The translations under genes were made by a program, and so were the position numbers. From positions 64,001-128,000 of IMG/VR virus record IMGVR_UViG_3300023202_000336: a stretch of DNA of 64,000 nt, one strand, 5' to 3'. This document shows, one piece after another, positions 2,273 through 40,989 of the stretch; the stretch's first letter is position 1, and each line of letters starts with the position of its first letter. The notes under the pieces were generated by a model. The model had not been told where the DNA came from. It made no database searches and saw only the letters and a list, made by a program, of their open reading frames with translations. Origin of the DNA: a virus.

Positions 2273-3211
2273 ATGACTCAAGAGAAGCTTAGCGCGGCTC
2301 AGTCGAATAAGATCTTCTTCGGTCTGCTCGATAGTGGGCAGGTGAAAGAGGCACAGGATATGGTCTCGGACTTTACCCGAGTTCGTATCCGGGAGAGTTC
2401 CTTCTTCGAGAAGATTCTCCCCTCGGTCAAGATCGCTGACGACGAGCTGACGCCCCAGCTGGATAACGACAAGAATGTGAAGCTGGTGGAGCGCGAACCC
2501 GCGTCTCCGGCGGCCGTCACTATTCCGCTCGGTACCCAGCCGGTTCAGTACTACTTCCGCGGCGATCGGTTCCCGGTCTTTTTCGACCGGATCGTGACGA
2601 CCAAGTTCACCAAGGATATCTCCGAACTCCGTACCTACGGGATGGATATCCGACAGGTGATCTCGGATAACGCGGTCCTCGATATGGACTTCGAGTTCGA
2701 CCGCAAGATGATCGCTGCTGCGCAGTCGATCGTCGGCGCGGAAGGCTCGACCGTCCCCGAGACCGGGGTCATCCAGAACCGGAAGATCGTCGATCCGCTC
2801 GGCATCACCCGTAACTCGCTCTTCGAACTGCGGAAGATCCTCCCTGAGACTTTCGCTCACCTCGAGAGTGTGACGATTCTCGTGAATAACATCACTATTC
2901 ACGACGTTGCGAAGTTCGGGCGAGACGACCAGGGCGGCGACCTCTCGGAGACGATGTTCGTCGAGGGGTTCCAGCAGAAGCAGCTGCTGGGCGCCAACTG
3001 GATTGTGACAAACAAGACAGAGCTGATCGAGAACAGCACCTTCTGGTTGTTTGCCTCGCCCGAGTTTATCGGGAAGAGCTTTATCCTGGAGGACGTGACG
3101 CTCTTCCTTGATAAGAGGGCATTCAATCTGGAGTTCTTCGCTTACACTGAGCGTGGTGCTACCATCGGTAACGCTGCTGCGGTCGCGAAGGCTCGGATCG
3201 CTACTAGCTAA
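2273..3211 (+). CDS. Major capsid protein (HK97-type fold likely)
   Basis: 312 aa, strong C/G-ending codon bias, followed by a strong terminator, C-terminal FFAYTERGATIGN pattern typical of capsid P-domain ends. Confidence 0.75.
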   Translation: MTQEKLSAAQSNKIFFGLLDSGQVKEAQDMVSDFTRVRIRESSFFEKILPSVKIADDELTPQLDNDKNVKLVEREPASPAAVTIPLGTQPVQYYFRGDRFPVFFDRIVTTKFTKDISELRTYGMDIRQVISDNAVLDMDFEFDRKMIAAAQSIVGAEGSTVPETGVIQNRKIVDPLGITRNSLFELRKILPETFAHLESVTILVNNITIHDVAKFGRDDQGGDLSETMFVEGFQQKQLLGANWIVTNKTELIENSTFWLFASPEFIGKSFILEDVTLFLDKRAFNLEFFAYTERGATIGNAAAVAKARIATS

Positions 3212-3236
3212 CTCCAGTTACGCTAGTTACTTACGA

Positions 3237-3272
3237 GAATCCCCCGGCCTGGAAGGGCTGGGGGATTCTTTT
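3237..3272 (+). terminator. Rho-independent terminator after capsid gene
   Basis: GAATCCCCCGGCC...GGCTGGGGGATTC stem followed by TTTT. Confidence 0.8.
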
Positions 3273-3437
3273 GTACGTCGGCCTGGCGTTTCGAACTGAT
3301 GAGTGGAAACCGAGGCCCGACCAGCCCACCTACGCACCTGGCGCTCTACTACACCTGTCGCTCTACCCGATATCGCTGCTATTACGATGGCTGGATAAAC
3401 CGTTGCAAAGTTTACTTAAAAGCTACTTTGAAAGTTT

Positions 3438-4457
3438 ATGCGAAGCAGAATAACGGATGAGGTCGCGAGAAAGGCTTATGAGTTCTACAAGCAGGGGCAC
3501 TCGCTTGTGGAAGTTGCTAAGAAGTATGAGTTTACCGCGTCTGGTCTCTCGGTTGCATTCTCCAAGCGTAAATGGCCTACACGTCCACGTGGACCCATCC
3601 CTGAGCGTGGAAGGCACCTCACTGCTTCAGACAAGGAAATTATCCTGAAAGCTTACTCTGAAGGGAATACAACTATTCGTTCACTCGCTAAGTCTTATGA
3701 GGTATCTGAAGGAGTGATTCGAAACCTGCTAAAGTCCTTCAATGTTCAAACGAGAAGAGATTGGTCGCGTCGTCGACAAGAGGACGGCAGCATCGTTTGC
3801 ATAGATTGTAGTGTACCAATAACAACTCAAAACGCCCAGAAGGATAAGTATCGTAAATCAGGATTGATCAGTCGTTGCCGAATTTGTCAGCGGAGACATA
3901 TCAGGTATAAGAAATATAAGCTGACGTATGACCAGCTCTTAAGACGTTTAAAGATACAGGGATATAAATGTCCGATCTGTGAAGGACATCTCGAGGAATC
4001 ACTTTTAAAGGTAGATCATTGTCACCGTCGAAAGGTAGTGCGAGGATTACTATGTAACGATTGTAACGTTGCTCTCGGGTATGTCTGCGACAATGCAGAA
4101 ACGCTCGTTCGAATGGCAGATTATCTTGCTACGGCTGATACTGGTTCCGTTGCTACTCGTACTGGCGTCTATAGCTGCGGTTCGACCGATAACGAGAAAC
4201 ATCGTTATGCAGTTTATGGGATTACAGCGGAGCGCTTCAATGAGCTGAAGGAAGCTCAAAATAACGTATGCGCCTGTTGTCAACATTTTCGGACGACTCA
4301 GCGAGCACCCGATCTAGTGATAGAGCATTGTCACATCTCCGGCCGGATCCGCGGCCTCACATGTCAGTATTGTAACCGAGCTATCCAGCACTTTAAAGAC
4401 CTTGCAAATCGATGTCTTCGCGCCGCTGATTACCTTCAGCAAGCGCAGGAGGGATAA
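3438..4457 (+). CDS. HTH plus tandem endonuclease VII-like domains (homing endonuclease-like)
   Basis: CPIC..VDHCH..RGLLCNDCN and CACC..IEHCH..RGLTCQYCN motifs; N-terminal HTH-like segments; AT-richer than neighbours. Confidence 0.8.
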   Translation: MRSRITDEVARKAYEFYKQGHSLVEVAKKYEFTASGLSVAFSKRKWPTRPRGPIPERGRHLTASDKEIILKAYSEGNTTIRSLAKSYEVSEGVIRNLLKSFNVQTRRDWSRRRQEDGSIVCIDCSVPITTQNAQKDKYRKSGLISRCRICQRRHIRYKKYKLTYDQLLRRLKIQGYKCPICEGHLEESLLKVDHCHRRKVVRGLLCNDCNVALGYVCDNAETLVRMADYLATADTGSVATRTGVYSCGSTDNEKHRYAVYGITAERFNELKEAQNNVCACCQHFRTTQRAPDLVIEHCHISGRIRGLTCQYCNRAIQHFKDLANRCLRAADYLQQAQEG

Positions 4458-4458
4458 A

Positions 4459-5463
4459 ATGCCGAGGCTTACTCACGAGCAGACCGCGGACGTGATAGCT
4501 CAATACGAAGATGGTATGACGATGCGAGCGATAGCTGAAAAGTTTAGTATTACTAAAATGGCGGTGAGTAAGCTGCTCCGAAGGAATGCGGTTGCTACAC
4601 GGCCAGTTGGACGCCCTAGTACTTTGAAGGCTGCACTTTCAGCAGCACCAGTGGGGTTGAGCCCGTCATATCTTCCTCCTGTTATAGGCGTCTTCCACAA
4701 TCTTGCGATCGTATCGGTCAATCCTCGAGAGTGGAATATTCACACGATAATGGGCCGGTTTGATCAGACGCATGCGCAGGCGGCCCAGTGGATGCTACAT
4801 CTTCAGAGACATCTGGTACTCTCAGGCTATAAGTATCTTATATTATGGGAAGATGAGGTGCATTCTCCGCCAGTAACCAATATGGTTAGGCACAAAGCTC
4901 GAAAGCAGACTCGAAAAGTTTATGCGCGAAAATGCAGTATCGTCGAAGTCGATCGTTCAACATCGAACGAGTTCTATCGGAAACACCATATACAAGGCAC
5001 CTGTACGGGCACCGTCCACTACGGTCTCGAAAACGAAAATGAGCTCGTCGCATGTATGAGCTTTAATCAAGGCTCTGCCTGTCGAGGTAAACGAGAAGAT
5101 CATTTGCTTCAGCGATATGCGACTGCATGCCAGGTGACGGGCGGAGCCTCGAAATTATTGGCCGCGTTTCGTTCGGATCATTCAGGTCCTATTGTGAGCT
5201 ATTCAGACGAACGATATGCTGCTGGCGGGAATCTTTACCAGATACTTGGCTTTTCCCAGGTACACGTTCATAAGCCGGATTACAGGTACTGGCGAGACGG
5301 AACTTGGTATCCGAAGAATGCGAAACAGAGGCGTCACCTTTATGCAGAAGCAGCTGATCGTGGTGCCCCTTTTCCAGAGGGGAGCAAAGAGTTCAATATG
5401 GCTGAGGCATTAGGTTATCTTCGCTGCTACGACATGGGAAAGATTACCTGGAGGCTTGAGTAG
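4459..5463 (+). CDS. HTH plus Hef-like homing-endonuclease-associated protein with Mom/GNAT-like C-terminal domain
   Basis: ATG at 4459 after SD; ILWEDE remnant, FYRKHHIQG, GGASKLL and SYSDERY..GNLYQILGF motifs. Confidence 0.6.
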   Translation: MPRLTHEQTADVIAQYEDGMTMRAIAEKFSITKMAVSKLLRRNAVATRPVGRPSTLKAALSAAPVGLSPSYLPPVIGVFHNLAIVSVNPREWNIHTIMGRFDQTHAQAAQWMLHLQRHLVLSGYKYLILWEDEVHSPPVTNMVRHKARKQTRKVYARKCSIVEVDRSTSNEFYRKHHIQGTCTGTVHYGLENENELVACMSFNQGSACRGKREDHLLQRYATACQVTGGASKLLAAFRSDHSGPIVSYSDERYAAGGNLYQILGFSQVHVHKPDYRYWRDGTWYPKNAKQRRHLYAEAADRGAPFPEGSKEFNMAEALGYLRCYDMGKITWRLE

Positions 5464-5536
5464 CTGTTCTTCTCAGCTCGAGCACCCTCTTGACAACTCT
5501 CCCTACGAGACATAGTAACCGCCGAAGGAGCCCACT

Positions 5537-6289
5537 ATGTCGAAGAAGACAGCGAAGAAGTCTTCGAAAAAGAAGAAGCCAGTAAAGAAGACTGCAAAGA
5601 AGGTAGCAAATAAGAAGACCGCGAAGAAGACCGCGAAGAAGACCGCGAAGAAGACCGCGAAGAAGACCGCGAAGAAGACTGCGAAGAAGGCGGTAAAGAG
5701 AAGCGTAGCTAAACCTACTTACGAGAACCCACCGAATTCCTGGTCAGAAGCTGCAGCGCATATTTTGAGTCAGATAGAGGGGGTCCATTTTACGCCTGAC
5801 GAACTCTATAGAGCATTTATGCAAAACACTCGGAAGGAGGTAACTATACGCTCTCCCTCAGGACCTCAGCACAGTATCGTTACGGCTTCACCCACTCCTG
5901 AGATGGAAGAGCAGCGGCTTCGTCGACGGTTGAGCAGTCTGAAGCAGAATCTCTCTCGTTACAGCAGAAAGCCTCAGATGCTCGCGAAGGAACTCGATGA
6001 TATTCTCTCTGGCGAGCTCGATCGTAATAAGAAAAAGGACCCGTTTGTAGAGAAGTGTGAGAAGTTCGTTGCGAGGGTACATAATGTCGTACACAACCTT
6101 CCGAGGTACCTTCGTTGGTGCGGCGACTCGTTGGCGGTTGAGCTGAGGAGTCTTGCAGACGAGGCTGAAGATATCGATAAGCAATGTAAGAAGGGAAAGT
6201 ATATCCCCGAAGAGTTGATTTCTATGAAACAACTTACCGAGATCGAGATACTCGGAGGTGATATTCATCGTGGTAAGGGGCCGGAATGA
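5537..6289 (+). CDS. Basic protein with histone H1-like KKTA-repeat N-terminus
   Basis: SD AAGGAG; KKTAKKTA.. repeats. Confidence 0.7.
   Translation: MSKKTAKKSSKKKKPVKKTAKKVANKKTAKKTAKKTAKKTAKKTAKKTAKKAVKRSVAKPTYENPPNSWSEAAAHILSQIEGVHFTPDELYRAFMQNTRKEVTIRSPSGPQHSIVTASPTPEMEEQRLRRRLSSLKQNLSRYSRKPQMLAKELDDILSGELDRNKKKDPFVEKCEKFVARVHNVVHNLPRYLRWCGDSLAVELRSLADEAEDIDKQCKKGKYIPEELISMKQLTEIEILGGDIHRGKGPE
5612..5683 (+). repeat. 12-bp tandem repeat x6 (AAGAAGACCGCG) coding KKTA
   Basis: Read directly. Confidence 0.95.
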
Positions 6290-37802: not shown

Positions 37803-38447
37803 TTAGCGTCTAGTTAGGGAAATCCAGGTAGCCTGTTCAGTAACGTCATCTTGTAAAAACAACGGATCGTTAGTAGCAAGTACTATATGTCTCCCCATGT
37901 TACGGGCCAAATATCTATCCGCTGGACAGTTATCGCTTTTAATAGCGCTATCACGGCATGCCTTTGATATTACTTTTAGAGAGTTCTCGACATAACTTTC
38001 AGTAACATGTAACACAGCATGAGTACCACACATATTAAGTATCCGTATACATTTAGAGCTATATTTATATATCGCTACTTTTCCTAGTTCAGAGTGACCG
38101 GGCCCTACTGGGCCATATAGAGAGTGGCCTAAGTATACGCGGTCTGTTTCGTCCGGTATATCTATGATAGGAGTATACCACCCTGTTTCTTTTGCGTCAT
38201 CTTCGAGTACCAAGGCCGGCAGTCTACCGCGTATGTAGCAGGCGGCATGGAAGGCAGCAAGGTTGGCACCAAGATATTTCTTTCTACTCTTAACCCCCGG
38301 GATTCTTTCGTGACGTGTAATACCAAGTCTCTCAAACATATTTTCGATGTTTTTACGACGCGCTACATCTTGATCTAAGTTAATGTAAAATACATTAACA
38401 TCTTTCCTGAGGTCGAGTTTCATATCATCCCCATCAATCGTAACCAC
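37803..38447 (-). CDS. Glycosyltransferase family 25-like
   Basis: VFYINLDQDVARR and LVLEDDA motifs. Confidence 0.75.
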   Translation of the reverse strand: MVTIDGDDMKLDLRKDVNVFYINLDQDVARRKNIENMFERLGITRHERIPGVKSRKKYLGANLAAFHAACYIRGRLPALVLEDDAKETGWYTPIIDIPDETDRVYLGHSLYGPVGPGHSELGKVAIYKYSSKCIRILNMCGTHAVLHVTESYVENSLKVISKACRDSAIKSDNCPADRYLARNMGRHIVLATNDPLFLQDDVTEQATWISLTRR

Positions 38448-39685
38448 TCGTTTGCAGTTTGTTTCGGTGAAGACTGCACGACTGGAGGCTGCACGTTGTT
38501 TACGGAATGCTCCCTGATTGTTTCAGCAATCATTTCAGCCGCCTCACGCGGATCGACGGTACGAATATACGAGTCGGGAGTATGTTCTGTTTCCCGCCCG
38601 GGATACCATTCGAAACGTGACGCTTCCAGCTCGATACCTCGTCCGTCGATGATCTCACCGGTTACGAAATCGTTCGGTCCAGCGACAAGAGTTCCAGCCG
38701 ACATCGCTTCTGCTACCGTAAAGTTCCAGCTATTTTTAAGTGAAGTGTCGAGTACGAGATCGCACGCGTTGTAGAGGTAGTTCATCTCTTGATCCGAAAG
38801 TCCTGGGGCTTTAGTCTTCTGATCGAAGAATCCGTATCCGAGTAGTATATCGTCCTCGAGTTCCAACTCGTTTCCGATCACGAGTGACTCGATATCGAGC
38901 CATTCGTTCTCGGTGTTAGCGGGTCGATATGGTGACATATGAAGGTAGCCTCTCACTTTTCCATCGATGAACGGATCTTTTTCGTTGAGAGTCTTCAGAT
39001 GCGCGATGGTCTGAATCGCGAGTGGGATCCCCTTCTTGATCGTCGGATTCCCGGAAACCAGTATGAGGAAGTCGTTCGGATCGACCTTTTCGTTGAAGAG
39101 ATGCTGACGAAGTTCCTCGGGCCCGTATTCGCCCGCATGTACGTTGAGTGGACGGAATATCGATGAATCTACCGCAGGCGGGATATACCACATATTCCGC
39201 GCAGCCACGTACGTATCGATATCTACCTTGTTCTCCTGCGTAGCTTCGATGAGTGCTTCCCGATAGGCGGCTCGAGCCATATATGAAGGCGTTACGAAAA
39301 AGTCGAATTTGGATACCGTTTTAAGATACTTCCCGTCGATAAAGGGAGTATCGATAAGGCCGTAACCGATCGAAAGACTATTGCGGACTTCCAGATTATC
39401 TGCCAGATCTTCGAGTGTCCCTATATCGAGTGTATGCGTAATACCCAGCGTTTTCTCAGCAGGTACGGCGTTTAGGACTTCTACGTTATCAGGGGGATCG
39501 AACTGATACGCCCCCTGGTAGGGGGCCCTGACGGCTACGAGAATACGTTCGAAGCGAGGCCCCCAGAGGGGGAGCATATCTTTGAGAAACCGCCCGAAAA
39601 GGTAGTGATCACCCGGGTGGGGGGAGCAGATCATGAGTTGAGCCATCGCGCGAACGCTATTCCTATTTGAGGCAGTTGTCAACAA
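38420..39685 (-). CDS. Glycosyltransferase family 4 (GT-B fold)
   Basis: YNACDLVLDTS..SW..TVAEAMSAGT motif. Confidence 0.8.
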   Translation of the reverse strand: MLTTASNRNSVRAMAQLMICSPHPGDHYLFGRFLKDMLPLWGPRFERILVAVRAPYQGAYQFDPPDNVEVLNAVPAEKTLGITHTLDIGTLEDLADNLEVRNSLSIGYGLIDTPFIDGKYLKTVSKFDFFVTPSYMARAAYREALIEATQENKVDIDTYVAARNMWYIPPAVDSSIFRPLNVHAGEYGPEELRQHLFNEKVDPNDFLILVSGNPTIKKGIPLAIQTIAHLKTLNEKDPFIDGKVRGYLHMSPYRPANTENEWLDIESLVIGNELELEDDILLGYGFFDQKTKAPGLSDQEMNYLYNACDLVLDTSLKNSWNFTVAEAMSAGTLVAGPNDFVTGEIIDGRGIELEASRFEWYPGRETEHTPDSYIRTVDPREAAEMIAETIREHSVNNVQPPVVQSSPKQTANEWLRLMGMI

Positions 39686-39767
39686 CCTTGTGGTGCCCCC
39701 TCGAGGGGCTTTCCGTTATCTGTGAACGCGCGTACAAAATCGAAAGCCCCCTGGGGGGCATAGTGAA

Positions 39768-39796
39768 TTCAGAGCCTTATTTACGTATATATAAAT
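39768..39796 (+). promoter_or_regulatory. Putative promoter for the structured RNA (TTCAGA-16-TATAAA; contains TATATATAAA)
   Basis: AT-rich island; 10-mer shared with the CRISPR leader. Confidence 0.4.
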
Positions 39797-39804
39797 GAGG
39801 AAAG

Positions 39805-40460
39805 TTATGCTATCGCAAGATAGCGTGGCTGGCAGCCGTAAAGCAATTTACGGTGGTCGCGCGGTTCTGAAGAATCGTGCGGCGGCGGAATCGCGATTCG
39901 TCGCGATTTCGTTTTGCCCTTGGTGGGACTGCGGTCCAGCGGACCGGGATCCTAAGGGATCCCGCTGCCGCCTTTCGGCGAAGTACGCCGGCACCTGGAG
40001 AGACGGTAATAAGCTCCGGGTGTAAAGCCCGCAAGGGTCAAAACCCGGAGTGAAATGGCCGTCTAGGAGTAAGCCCTACGTCATGAGGCATCTGAAACCG
40101 TCGTGACTCCTCCACGACAGACCCTCAGGGCAGCGTGAAAACAAAGCGCGTAAGACCAAGGTTCGGGCTGGTCCACGCTCGTAATAGAAGGACAAAACAA
40201 AACAAAAAGGATTAGGAGATGGCGCTCCGACATCCCATCTTCTTAACAGGGTACGTCCCTGAGAAGATGGCCTGCTATGTTACCCCTTGAGTGGGGAAGT
40301 TCCGCGAGGAGCAGGCGATGCCCGTTATCGATAAACGGGAAGTCTAAGGTATACCACCGCCCTTTGGTAGGAGTATATCGGAGGCGTTTTGTCCCGCGAT
40401 AGCAGCCACCTCCACGCGGTGCGGGATGGACACTTGGCTTGTTGCCAGGTGACTAGGAGC
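39805..40460 (+). ncRNA. Candidate large structured non-coding RNA (~600-650 nt), class unassigned
   Basis: More than a dozen hairpins, several with GCAA or UUCG tetraloops and G-U pairs favouring the + strand; 5'/3' long-range complementarity; no credible ORF. Confidence 0.7.
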
Positions 40461-40491
40461 TGCACGGCTGACCCGGACAGGAGACACGATC

Positions 40492-40896
40492 ATGAACATC
40501 GACCATACCGTCACCATCGACTACCTGCGGGCCTGGCGCGTCCGCCGTCTGCTGCGGCACCTGCCGCAGCACTACGAAGATGGCGGCGACCCCGACATCC
40601 CGCGCGGCGATGTCGGGGTCATCACTGGCCCCGGGATAGGGGCCGGGGAGCCCACGGGATACCGCGTCGAAGAGCGGGTAGTGGATGTCCCCGGATTCGG
40701 GGACATCCACGTCTGGATCCGACTGTCCTCTGGGCACCGGATCCAGGGTGGAGTCGTCGTGGGCTCAGGCACATGGAGGGTCCAGGACGCCTACGTCCCG
40801 GGCATGCAGGAGTTCGACATGGCTCAGCTGTCGGCCATCGTTGACCAGTTGGATGTCGACCTTCTGCGGCAGACTGAGGACCTACTAGACGCCTGA
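40492..40896 (+). CDS. Hypothetical protein
   Basis: SD AGGAG; flanked by 11-bp direct repeat CTGACCCGGAC. Confidence 0.65.
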   Translation: MNIDHTVTIDYLRAWRVRRLLRHLPQHYEDGGDPDIPRGDVGVITGPGIGAGEPTGYRVEERVVDVPGFGDIHVWIRLSSGHRIQGGVVVGSGTWRVQDAYVPGMQEFDMAQLSAIVDQLDVDLLRQTEDLLDA

Positions 40897-40989
40897 CCCG
40901 GACCAGGGCACCGTCTCCGCACGGTGCCCGCGCCCTGGCCACGCGTCATCACCACCGGCCCTTCGGGGCACACAGGAGACCTTCATGTT

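Follow-up and report, generated by a model that had tools for sequence, protein, structure and literature searches.

Positions ~39800-40390 (+ strand) of the phage sequence analysed here most probably form a stand-alone gene for a processed non-coding RNA of ~590 nt, perhaps of a new class, that is ended by a ribozyme and lies at a variable "stable RNA" locus; we give this reading a probability of about two in three. The region is strongly structured, non-coding and strand-specific, and its locus is conserved together with a conserved start module. Immediately downstream of the region lies an HDV-like ribozyme, which probably cuts free the tail of the large RNA.

The locus

The window, that is, the whole 64,000-nt stretch of DNA that was analysed, spans positions 64001-128000 in a viral record of 180,134 bp, which carries direct terminal repeats. 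Besides pieces of a multisubunit RNA polymerase, the uncultured phage (G000 below) encodes a DNA polymerase of family A and a LigD-like protein; its genome also has genes for tail and baseplate, and a CRISPR array accompanied by a Cas12-like gene. The RNA locus is flanked by a divergent glycosyltransferase gene (38420-39685, - strand) and by an orphan ORF of 134 aa on the + strand. The flanking genes are thus divergent or downstream of the RNA, and none of them is split. The features of the locus are collected in Table 1.

Table 1. Features of the RNA locus, in window coordinates
Feature	Position	Strand	Remarks
Two GCCCCC-N-GGGGGC palindromes	39511, 39560		
Pair of GCCCCC-N-GGGGGC palindromic hairpins	39694-39710 and 39746-39760		Just upstream of the putative RNA gene; jointly a larger inverted repeat
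Promoter-like block CGTATATATAAATGAGG	39784-39800	+	Putative promoter; predicted transcription start ~39798-39804
5'-terminal hairpin H1	39803-39830	+	12 bp, GCAA loop; pair probability 0.99; three G.U pairs
Domain I, multi-branch	39831-39969	+	Closing helix 39831-36/39964-69; loops GCAA, UGAA, UUCG and UAAG
Domain II	39970-40179	+	Long GCAA-tipped arm 40001-40064 and two weaker branched arms
A-rich linker	40180-40208	+	Unpaired
Domain III	40209-40385	+	Five hairpins or arms, including 40236-40269 and 40321-40339
Predicted self-cleavage site	U40390/G40391	+	Position 1 of the Rfam HDV model; first P1 position of model R2
HDV-like ribozyme	40391-40463	+	Matches to RF02682, drz-agam-1 and R2 models
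P1	40391-97/40421-27		GUCCCGC/GCGGGAU, 7 bp, G.U first pair
P2	40402-06/40459-63		GCAGC with GCUGC; pseudoknot of J1/2 and the 3' tail
P3	40408-10/40418-20		ACC/GGU, 3 bp; L3 = UCCACGC (7 nt)
P1.1	C40412,C40413/G40428,G40429		Read from the sequence
P4	40431-38/40444-51		8 bp; followed by J4/2 A-C40453-UAGGA
Orphan 134-aa ORF	40492-40896	+	Start codon 28 nt past the ribozyme, preceded by a GGAG Shine-Dalgarno motif

The palindromes at the head of the locus, four in all between 39511 and 39760 and of the form GCCCCC-N(4-6)-GGGGGC, are clustered nowhere else in the 180-kb genome. They are terminator-like on both strands and may be an insulator, a terminator or a protein-binding site. The block CGTATATATAAATGAGG also occurs only once in the genome; a sigma-70 scan called no promoter there.

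A structured and non-coding RNA body

A sequence-only reading of this DNA had proposed a large, highly structured non-coding RNA, and both the fold statistics and the ORF tests back this proposal for the + strand. The segment 39790-40470 (+, 681 nt) folds at -311.7 kcal/mol, compared with -243.6 +/- 5.2 kcal/mol for 20 dinucleotide shuffles (z = -13.2). The body itself, 39803-40390 (588 nt), folds at -262.7 kcal/mol, compared with -207.5 +/- 7.5 kcal/mol for 100 dinucleotide shuffles (z = -7.4), the lowest-energy shuffle reaching -227.7 kcal/mol. The - strand folds more weakly than the + strand (z = -4.8 to -4.9). The + strand fold contains 192 pairs, 22 of them G.U, and pairs 65% of the bases; in a sliding scan, strong + strand structure begins at ~39740-39800.

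All the hairpins listed in the sequence-only reading occur where it had placed them, and both the centroid and the minimum-free-energy fold use them. Among these hairpins are GCUAUC-GCAA-GAUAGC at 39809, a GCAA hairpin at 39837-39852, a 12-bp stem with a UGAA loop at 39856-39883, a 10-bp stem with a UUCG loop at 39887-39910, GGGAUCC-UAAG-GGAUCCC, a GCAA-tipped arm at 40013-40051, and the two domain III hairpins named in Table 1; the A-rich linker is also present. The four main hairpins of domain I have helix probabilities of 0.97-1.0 and its closing helix one of 0.69, and a candidate long-range helix that joins 39970-75 to 40380-85 has a probability of 0.57. Since no homologue of the body was found (see below), its detailed fold is an energy-based prediction. 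A side observation concerns the loop AUCGAUA of the hairpin at 40321-40339: it contains a palindrome of 6 nt and is possibly a kissing-loop dimerisation site, although it is one such loop among about eight and may have arisen by chance.

The body (39803-40390, +) is poor in ORFs and lacks codon periodicity, and across the RNA region each + strand frame is interrupted by 7-10 stops. No Rfam family reaches the gathering cut-off anywhere in the 64-kb window, and nothing covers the body at E <= 10 within 39600-40600; in particular, the GOLLD, ROOL, OLE, HEARO and raiA models gave no match under either setting. The RNA therefore belongs to none of the known large classes that were searched, to which the sequence-only reading had likewise been unable to assign it. 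That reading had also recognised no tRNA, group I or II intron or RNase P core, in agreement with the absence of matches to these family models and to tmRNA, and of any interrupted gene. A link of the RNA to antisense regulation or CRISPR was considered and rejected: the RNA and the repeats of the Cas12 array have no sequence in common, and the Cas12-like gene, 3.4 kb downstream of the RNA, has its own repeats.

A ribozyme at the 3' end

The RF02682 model (the F. prausnitzii HDV model) matches 40391-40462 end to end with 25 bits (E 0.03 in 1 kb), which is below the Rfam gathering cut-off of 44, and the drz-agam-1 model matches the same place. When the whole genome was searched with RF02682, this was the sole match in the 180 kb of G000 (E 0.0013); in the related phage G002, the best match (E 0.0026) lies at the syntenic position and in the same orientation. 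P1.1, P2 and the J4/2 cytosine are outside the scoring of the Rfam model, yet they are readable in the sequence, and C40453 stands at the catalytic place, with the same position and spacing as in the CUAAGA or CUGAGU of the family. In J4/2 the G002 copy reads GUAGA, so that a G replaces the catalytic C of the family, and two hairpins occupy the position of P4. Because this copy seems to be without the catalytic C, processing may not be universal at the locus.

A further model, R2, was built from three family sequences that had been found with a pattern taken from the core of G000 and G002. It scores 30.2 bits on G000 (E 3e-6) and places the first P1 base at 40391; since the search pattern came from G000 and G002, this score is not independent for the core, and the independent support for the ribozyme consists of the P1 pairing and the Rfam matches. 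A hand-made HDV descriptor was too loose (64 matches in the genome) and was dropped. Note that the minimum-free-energy fold of the ribozyme alone is uninformative because the method cannot model the pseudoknot.

The 3' element is a bona fide member of a subtype of HDV-like ribozymes. Searching IMG/VR with a pattern of the shared core yielded about 20 further ribozymes of the subtype (two other loci, L053 and L055, were set aside as chance pattern matches). In 18 distinct sequences, P1 pairs at 7/7 positions with 4-5 pair types per position, J4/2 reads C-N-R-A-N-N, and P2 is kept with different letters, for example GUAGC/GCUAC, GAUAGC/GCUAUC and GUACAGC/GCUGUAC, the swaps being of the type C-G to U-A and G-C to A-U. 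To align the ribozymes, a model-based procedure was used instead of MAFFT, which was out of register for P1, P4 and P2. In the resulting alignment of 27 distinct sequences, 99.6% of the P1/P3 cells pair, whereas controls slid out of place pair in 36-55% of cells; the covariation score is 0.76, compared with 0.20 in shuffles, none of 500 of which reached 0.76. For P1 itself, 99.5% of cells pair and six of the seven pairs vary in both partners; 16 of 24 sequences have G.U as the first pair. P1.1 is without covariation because it is invariant in the family.

Members of the subtype are found 1 nt behind tRNA-Met in four loci (L093, L109, L118 and L094), inside tRNA arrays, 13-25 nt before ORFs, or after structured ORF-free RNA; this distribution agrees with that of the published theta ribozymes. 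All ~20 copies (L054-L121), including those adjacent to tRNA-Met, score below the gathering thresholds of the Rfam HDV models. Standard annotation with Rfam thus misses the subtype, and arrangements of ribozyme and RNA are probably under-counted. The regions upstream of ~24 ribozyme-bearing loci contain no homologue of the G000 body. Some contigs carry several copies: L073 has three, and L077 and L105 have two each. In another contig (L111, IMGVR_UViG_3300009854_000325), five HDV-like ribozymes are spaced ~500 nt apart within 2851-5990, each just before an ORF of ~150 aa, with a twister-sister ribozyme at 4519-4587. The array looks like ribozyme-punctuated operon processing.

The identification of the ribozyme changes how the 3' end is to be read. 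The sequence-only reading had noticed that 40396-40409 is complementary to two 5' elements, 39809-39816 and 39825-39831, and had taken this to imply a closing helix with an alternative fold or pseudoknot. The complementarity is real, but the 3' segment runs from the last part of P1 through J1/2 and P2 into the beginning of P3, and when the ribozyme is left out, H1 takes up the two 5' elements by local pairing. The closing helix 39809-16/40396-403, though chosen by the 681-nt fold, was rejected as the native state: it would destroy the ribozyme, it is not predicted in G002, and its 5' strand would be taken first by H1. Such a helix could act as an off-switch for the ribozyme. Since the 3' element lies in an HDV-like ribozyme, the mature RNA probably ends at 40390 and not near 40410-40460.

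A conserved position with different RNAs

Searches for close kin with single proteins (three proteins, including PolA and the 134-aa ORF) found nothing, and one Logan contig is identical. A search with the RNA polymerase beta' subunit gave a large clade at 50-71% identity, with six IMG/VR records, and also a beta' of 91% identity in a Logan run (P0044); a search with a 223-aa tail-region protein gave six metagenome contigs; GTDB genomes contain no relative of the latter marker. Homologues of a DUF6745 protein, followed as a neighbour gene, sit in other phages without the RNA.

The phages G002, L058, L059 and L060 share the synteny of tail genes, glycosyltransferases, hairpins, block and RNA. 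In these four, the start of the glycosyltransferase gene is followed by GCCCCC..GGGGGC hairpins, then by CGTATATATA..TGA, then by a 5' hairpin with GCUAU, and finally by 470-830 nt of structured RNA without an ORF. The motif CGTATATATA..TGA is invariant in all of them as well as in an unrelated contig (L052). The 12-bp hairpin of G002 lies at the same distance from the block as H1 does in G000, and the GCUAU motif is found in the 5' hairpins of L058-L060. Similar GCCCCC..GGGGGC hairpins are present at the syntenic locus of five related phages, namely these four and G001, while the more distant G003-G005 have no block, hairpins or ribozyme at that place.

The syntenic RNAs are also more stable than expected (z = -6.8, -4.6 and -3.8), but the three kinds of RNA body are mutually unalignable by blastn, nhmmer or covariance model. 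Homologues of the G000 body were sought without success by blastn against 50,697 phage records, by blastn in five related phage records, and by blastn and nhmmer against the syntenic RNAs, and a covariance model of domain III (R1) had no match in 16 loci of relatives. The RNA of L058-L060 contains 22 pairs with compensatory changes, and at least this cargo is therefore under selection for structure. It has no ribozyme and runs straight into the next gene. From phage to phage, unrelated genes follow the RNA: an orphan in G000, a MYG1-like exonuclease in G002, and HTH proteins.

Two further loci are of note. At the syntenic place in G001 (L047 10253-10531, - strand), there are a tRNA-Met and a second tRNA match that spans 182 nt; the second tRNA has an insert of ~110 nt, possibly an intron. 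The contig L052 (IMGVR_UViG_3300006033_000264, 219-600), from an unrelated AT-rich phage, carries the identical 17-nt block CGTATATATAAATGAGG, followed by an ORF-free stretch of ~290 nt and then genes for tRNA-Trp and tRNA-Thr.

Proposed pathway

We infer that the block is a promoter and that it gives rise to a stable 590-nt product which works in trans, with a role like that of other large phage RNAs. Transcription would start just past the block, so that the 12-bp hairpin stands at the extreme 5' end of the RNA and the remainder is predicted to form three hairpin-rich domains and an A-rich linker. Once the polymerase has passed ~40465, the HDV-like ribozyme would fold and, as judged from this fold, cut between U40390 and G40391. 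HDV ribozymes leave a 2',3'-cyclic phosphate and a 5'-OH upon cleavage; accordingly placed here, the cyclic phosphate would be at the end of the large RNA, and the downstream mRNA would begin with a 5'-OH end and carry the ribozyme fold as a cap. The large RNA would then accumulate as a discrete stable species apart from the mRNA and act in trans. The locus would be a variable "stable RNA" site of the clade, in which the promoter-like block and the 5' hairpin are kept and the cargo varies.

Alternative explanations

The main rival to a stand-alone RNA gene is a long leader acting in cis for the downstream operon; the structured RNA would then have no separate existence, and the ribozyme would mainly serve the mRNA by giving it a defined, folded 5'-OH end and insulating its translation and stability from upstream sequence. 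We consider this unlikely, although several observations are in its favour. No terminator was found between the structured RNA and the 134-aa ORF, and only 28 nt separate the ribozyme from the ATG; the same ribozyme subtype stands at a similarly short distance before ORFs in other phages, including all five copies in L111; and in L058-L060 the ribozyme-free RNA is continuous with the next gene. Against it, a leader that is cut off would not need 590 nt of such tight folding. Moreover, since the downstream genes differ between phages while the promoter block and the 5' hairpin are kept, a gene-specific leader is disfavoured, and tRNAs occupy the syntenic place in G001 and follow the block in the unrelated L052. 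Under either reading, cleavage at 40390/40391 would free the structured RNA.

It is much less probable still that the region works as DNA, for example as an origin of replication or a site of packaging or recombination, or that it is a decaying remnant. Its intergenic position, the AT-rich unique block and the clustered palindromes upstream would suit such an element, and the downstream ORF is likewise rich in hairpins on both strands. However, the folding is strand-asymmetric with 22 G.U pairs, a strand-specific ribozyme with family covariation stands at the end, the cumulative GC skew has no turn here, and the syntenic RNA of relatives shows compensatory changes. Least credible of all is a protein gene with incidental structure, either the ORF at 39795-40025, whose conservation would have spoken against the RNA proposed in the sequence-only reading, or another small ORF. 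This ATG-started ORF of 76 aa does exist, and the gene caller predicts a 72-aa version of it, but its base composition by codon position is flat (GC1-3 of 0.57/0.57/0.61, compared with 0.59/0.42/0.60 in G000 genes). An exhaustive HMMER search of 1.84 billion representatives returned, besides its own record, only two weak matches of 35 residues, both to long proteins, and tblastn found no match in the sister genomes G001 and G002. Its ATG sits within the conserved block, and the relatives have early stops (in G002, after 2 codons). The ORF is thus not conserved.

Comparison with known RNAs

The G000 ribozyme shares with known HDV-like ribozymes (RF02682, theta) the nested double pseudoknot, the G.U first pair, L3 of the form UCCACGY, P1.1, and a C followed by UARGA in J4/2. 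Like theta ribozymes it is borne by a phage, and its core sequence is shared with the copies directly behind phage tRNA-Met genes. It differs from them in that it follows a 590-nt structured RNA instead of a tRNA, and the window contains no tRNA. In addition, the theta form has a short or absent P4 and lies within ~5 nt of a tRNA 3' end, whereas the G000 ribozyme, with its 8-bp P4, falls outside this form. Among the theta ribozymes of gut phages, 526 matches are not beside tRNAs, 493 of which are in non-coding regions with an unknown role (Kienbeck et al. 2024, PMC10879173). The G000 locus suggests a possible route to a defined RNA end, in which a ribozyme subtype published as a trimmer of tRNA tails would trim a 590-nt RNA.

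To our knowledge, only a few classes of large ornate phage RNAs have been described, and those that have, such as GOLLD and ROOL, still lack an assigned function. The G000 RNA is similar to these two in its size class (600-800 nt), its dense helices with GNRA loops, its phage origin and its lack of a known function; it differs in that it matches neither model even at E 10, has no conserved family around it, and would owe its 3' end to a predicted ribozyme. GOLLD (RF01998) and ROOL (RF03087) are often near tRNA islands (PMC12286853), and the tRNAs of the sister phage G001 lie at the same locus as the G000 RNA. OLE, the HEARO/IscB omega RNA and raiA are likewise long structured non-coding RNAs, but their models do not match, and no IscB or TnpB gene is adjacent. 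The G000 RNA thus adds an unusually well-folded orphan to the large phage RNAs, from a little-studied clade with its own multisubunit RNA polymerase. For its role, GOLLD and ROOL, which assemble with themselves, may offer the nearest analogy, and a decoy against host defence would be equally possible.

The conserved slot with varied cargo, in which RNAs or tRNAs appear behind the same promoter-like block at the same position, provides a comparative system for RNA function. A bolder proposal, which we put forward tentatively and at less than even odds, is that the clade has a single, strongly expressed "RNA slot" with hairpins that insulate it, a unique promoter, a 5' hairpin that protects the RNA and, in many cases, a ribozyme at the tail, and that the cargo (the three unalignable RNAs of 470-830 nt, or tRNAs) has been swapped or has diverged beyond recognition. 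If this were true, the slot would fit a molecule engaged in an arms race, for instance a decoy RNA aimed at a host defence or a particle that assembles itself as GOLLD and ROOL do, and the G000 RNA would be the founder of a new class of large RNAs.

Neighbouring genes

The orphan 134-aa ORF has a coding-like composition (GC1-3 of 0.74/0.41/0.81), and protein searches found no homologues of it. The region 40466-40905 folds at z ~ -6 on both strands owing to several perfect palindromes. Because direct repeats of 11 bp, CTGACCCGGAC, lie on either side of the ORF, at 40468 and 40893, the ORF may be an inserted cassette. In G002, the gene after the ribozyme-like element (L032 806-1741, - strand) is a homologue of MYG1/UPF0160-type exonucleases (E 1e-64). 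Elsewhere in the window, a patch of lower GC content at 3438-5463 contains two endonuclease genes, one endonuclease VII/HNH-like and the other homing-endonuclease-like, and LAGLIDADG or intein domains occur in the RNA polymerase and other large genes of G000.
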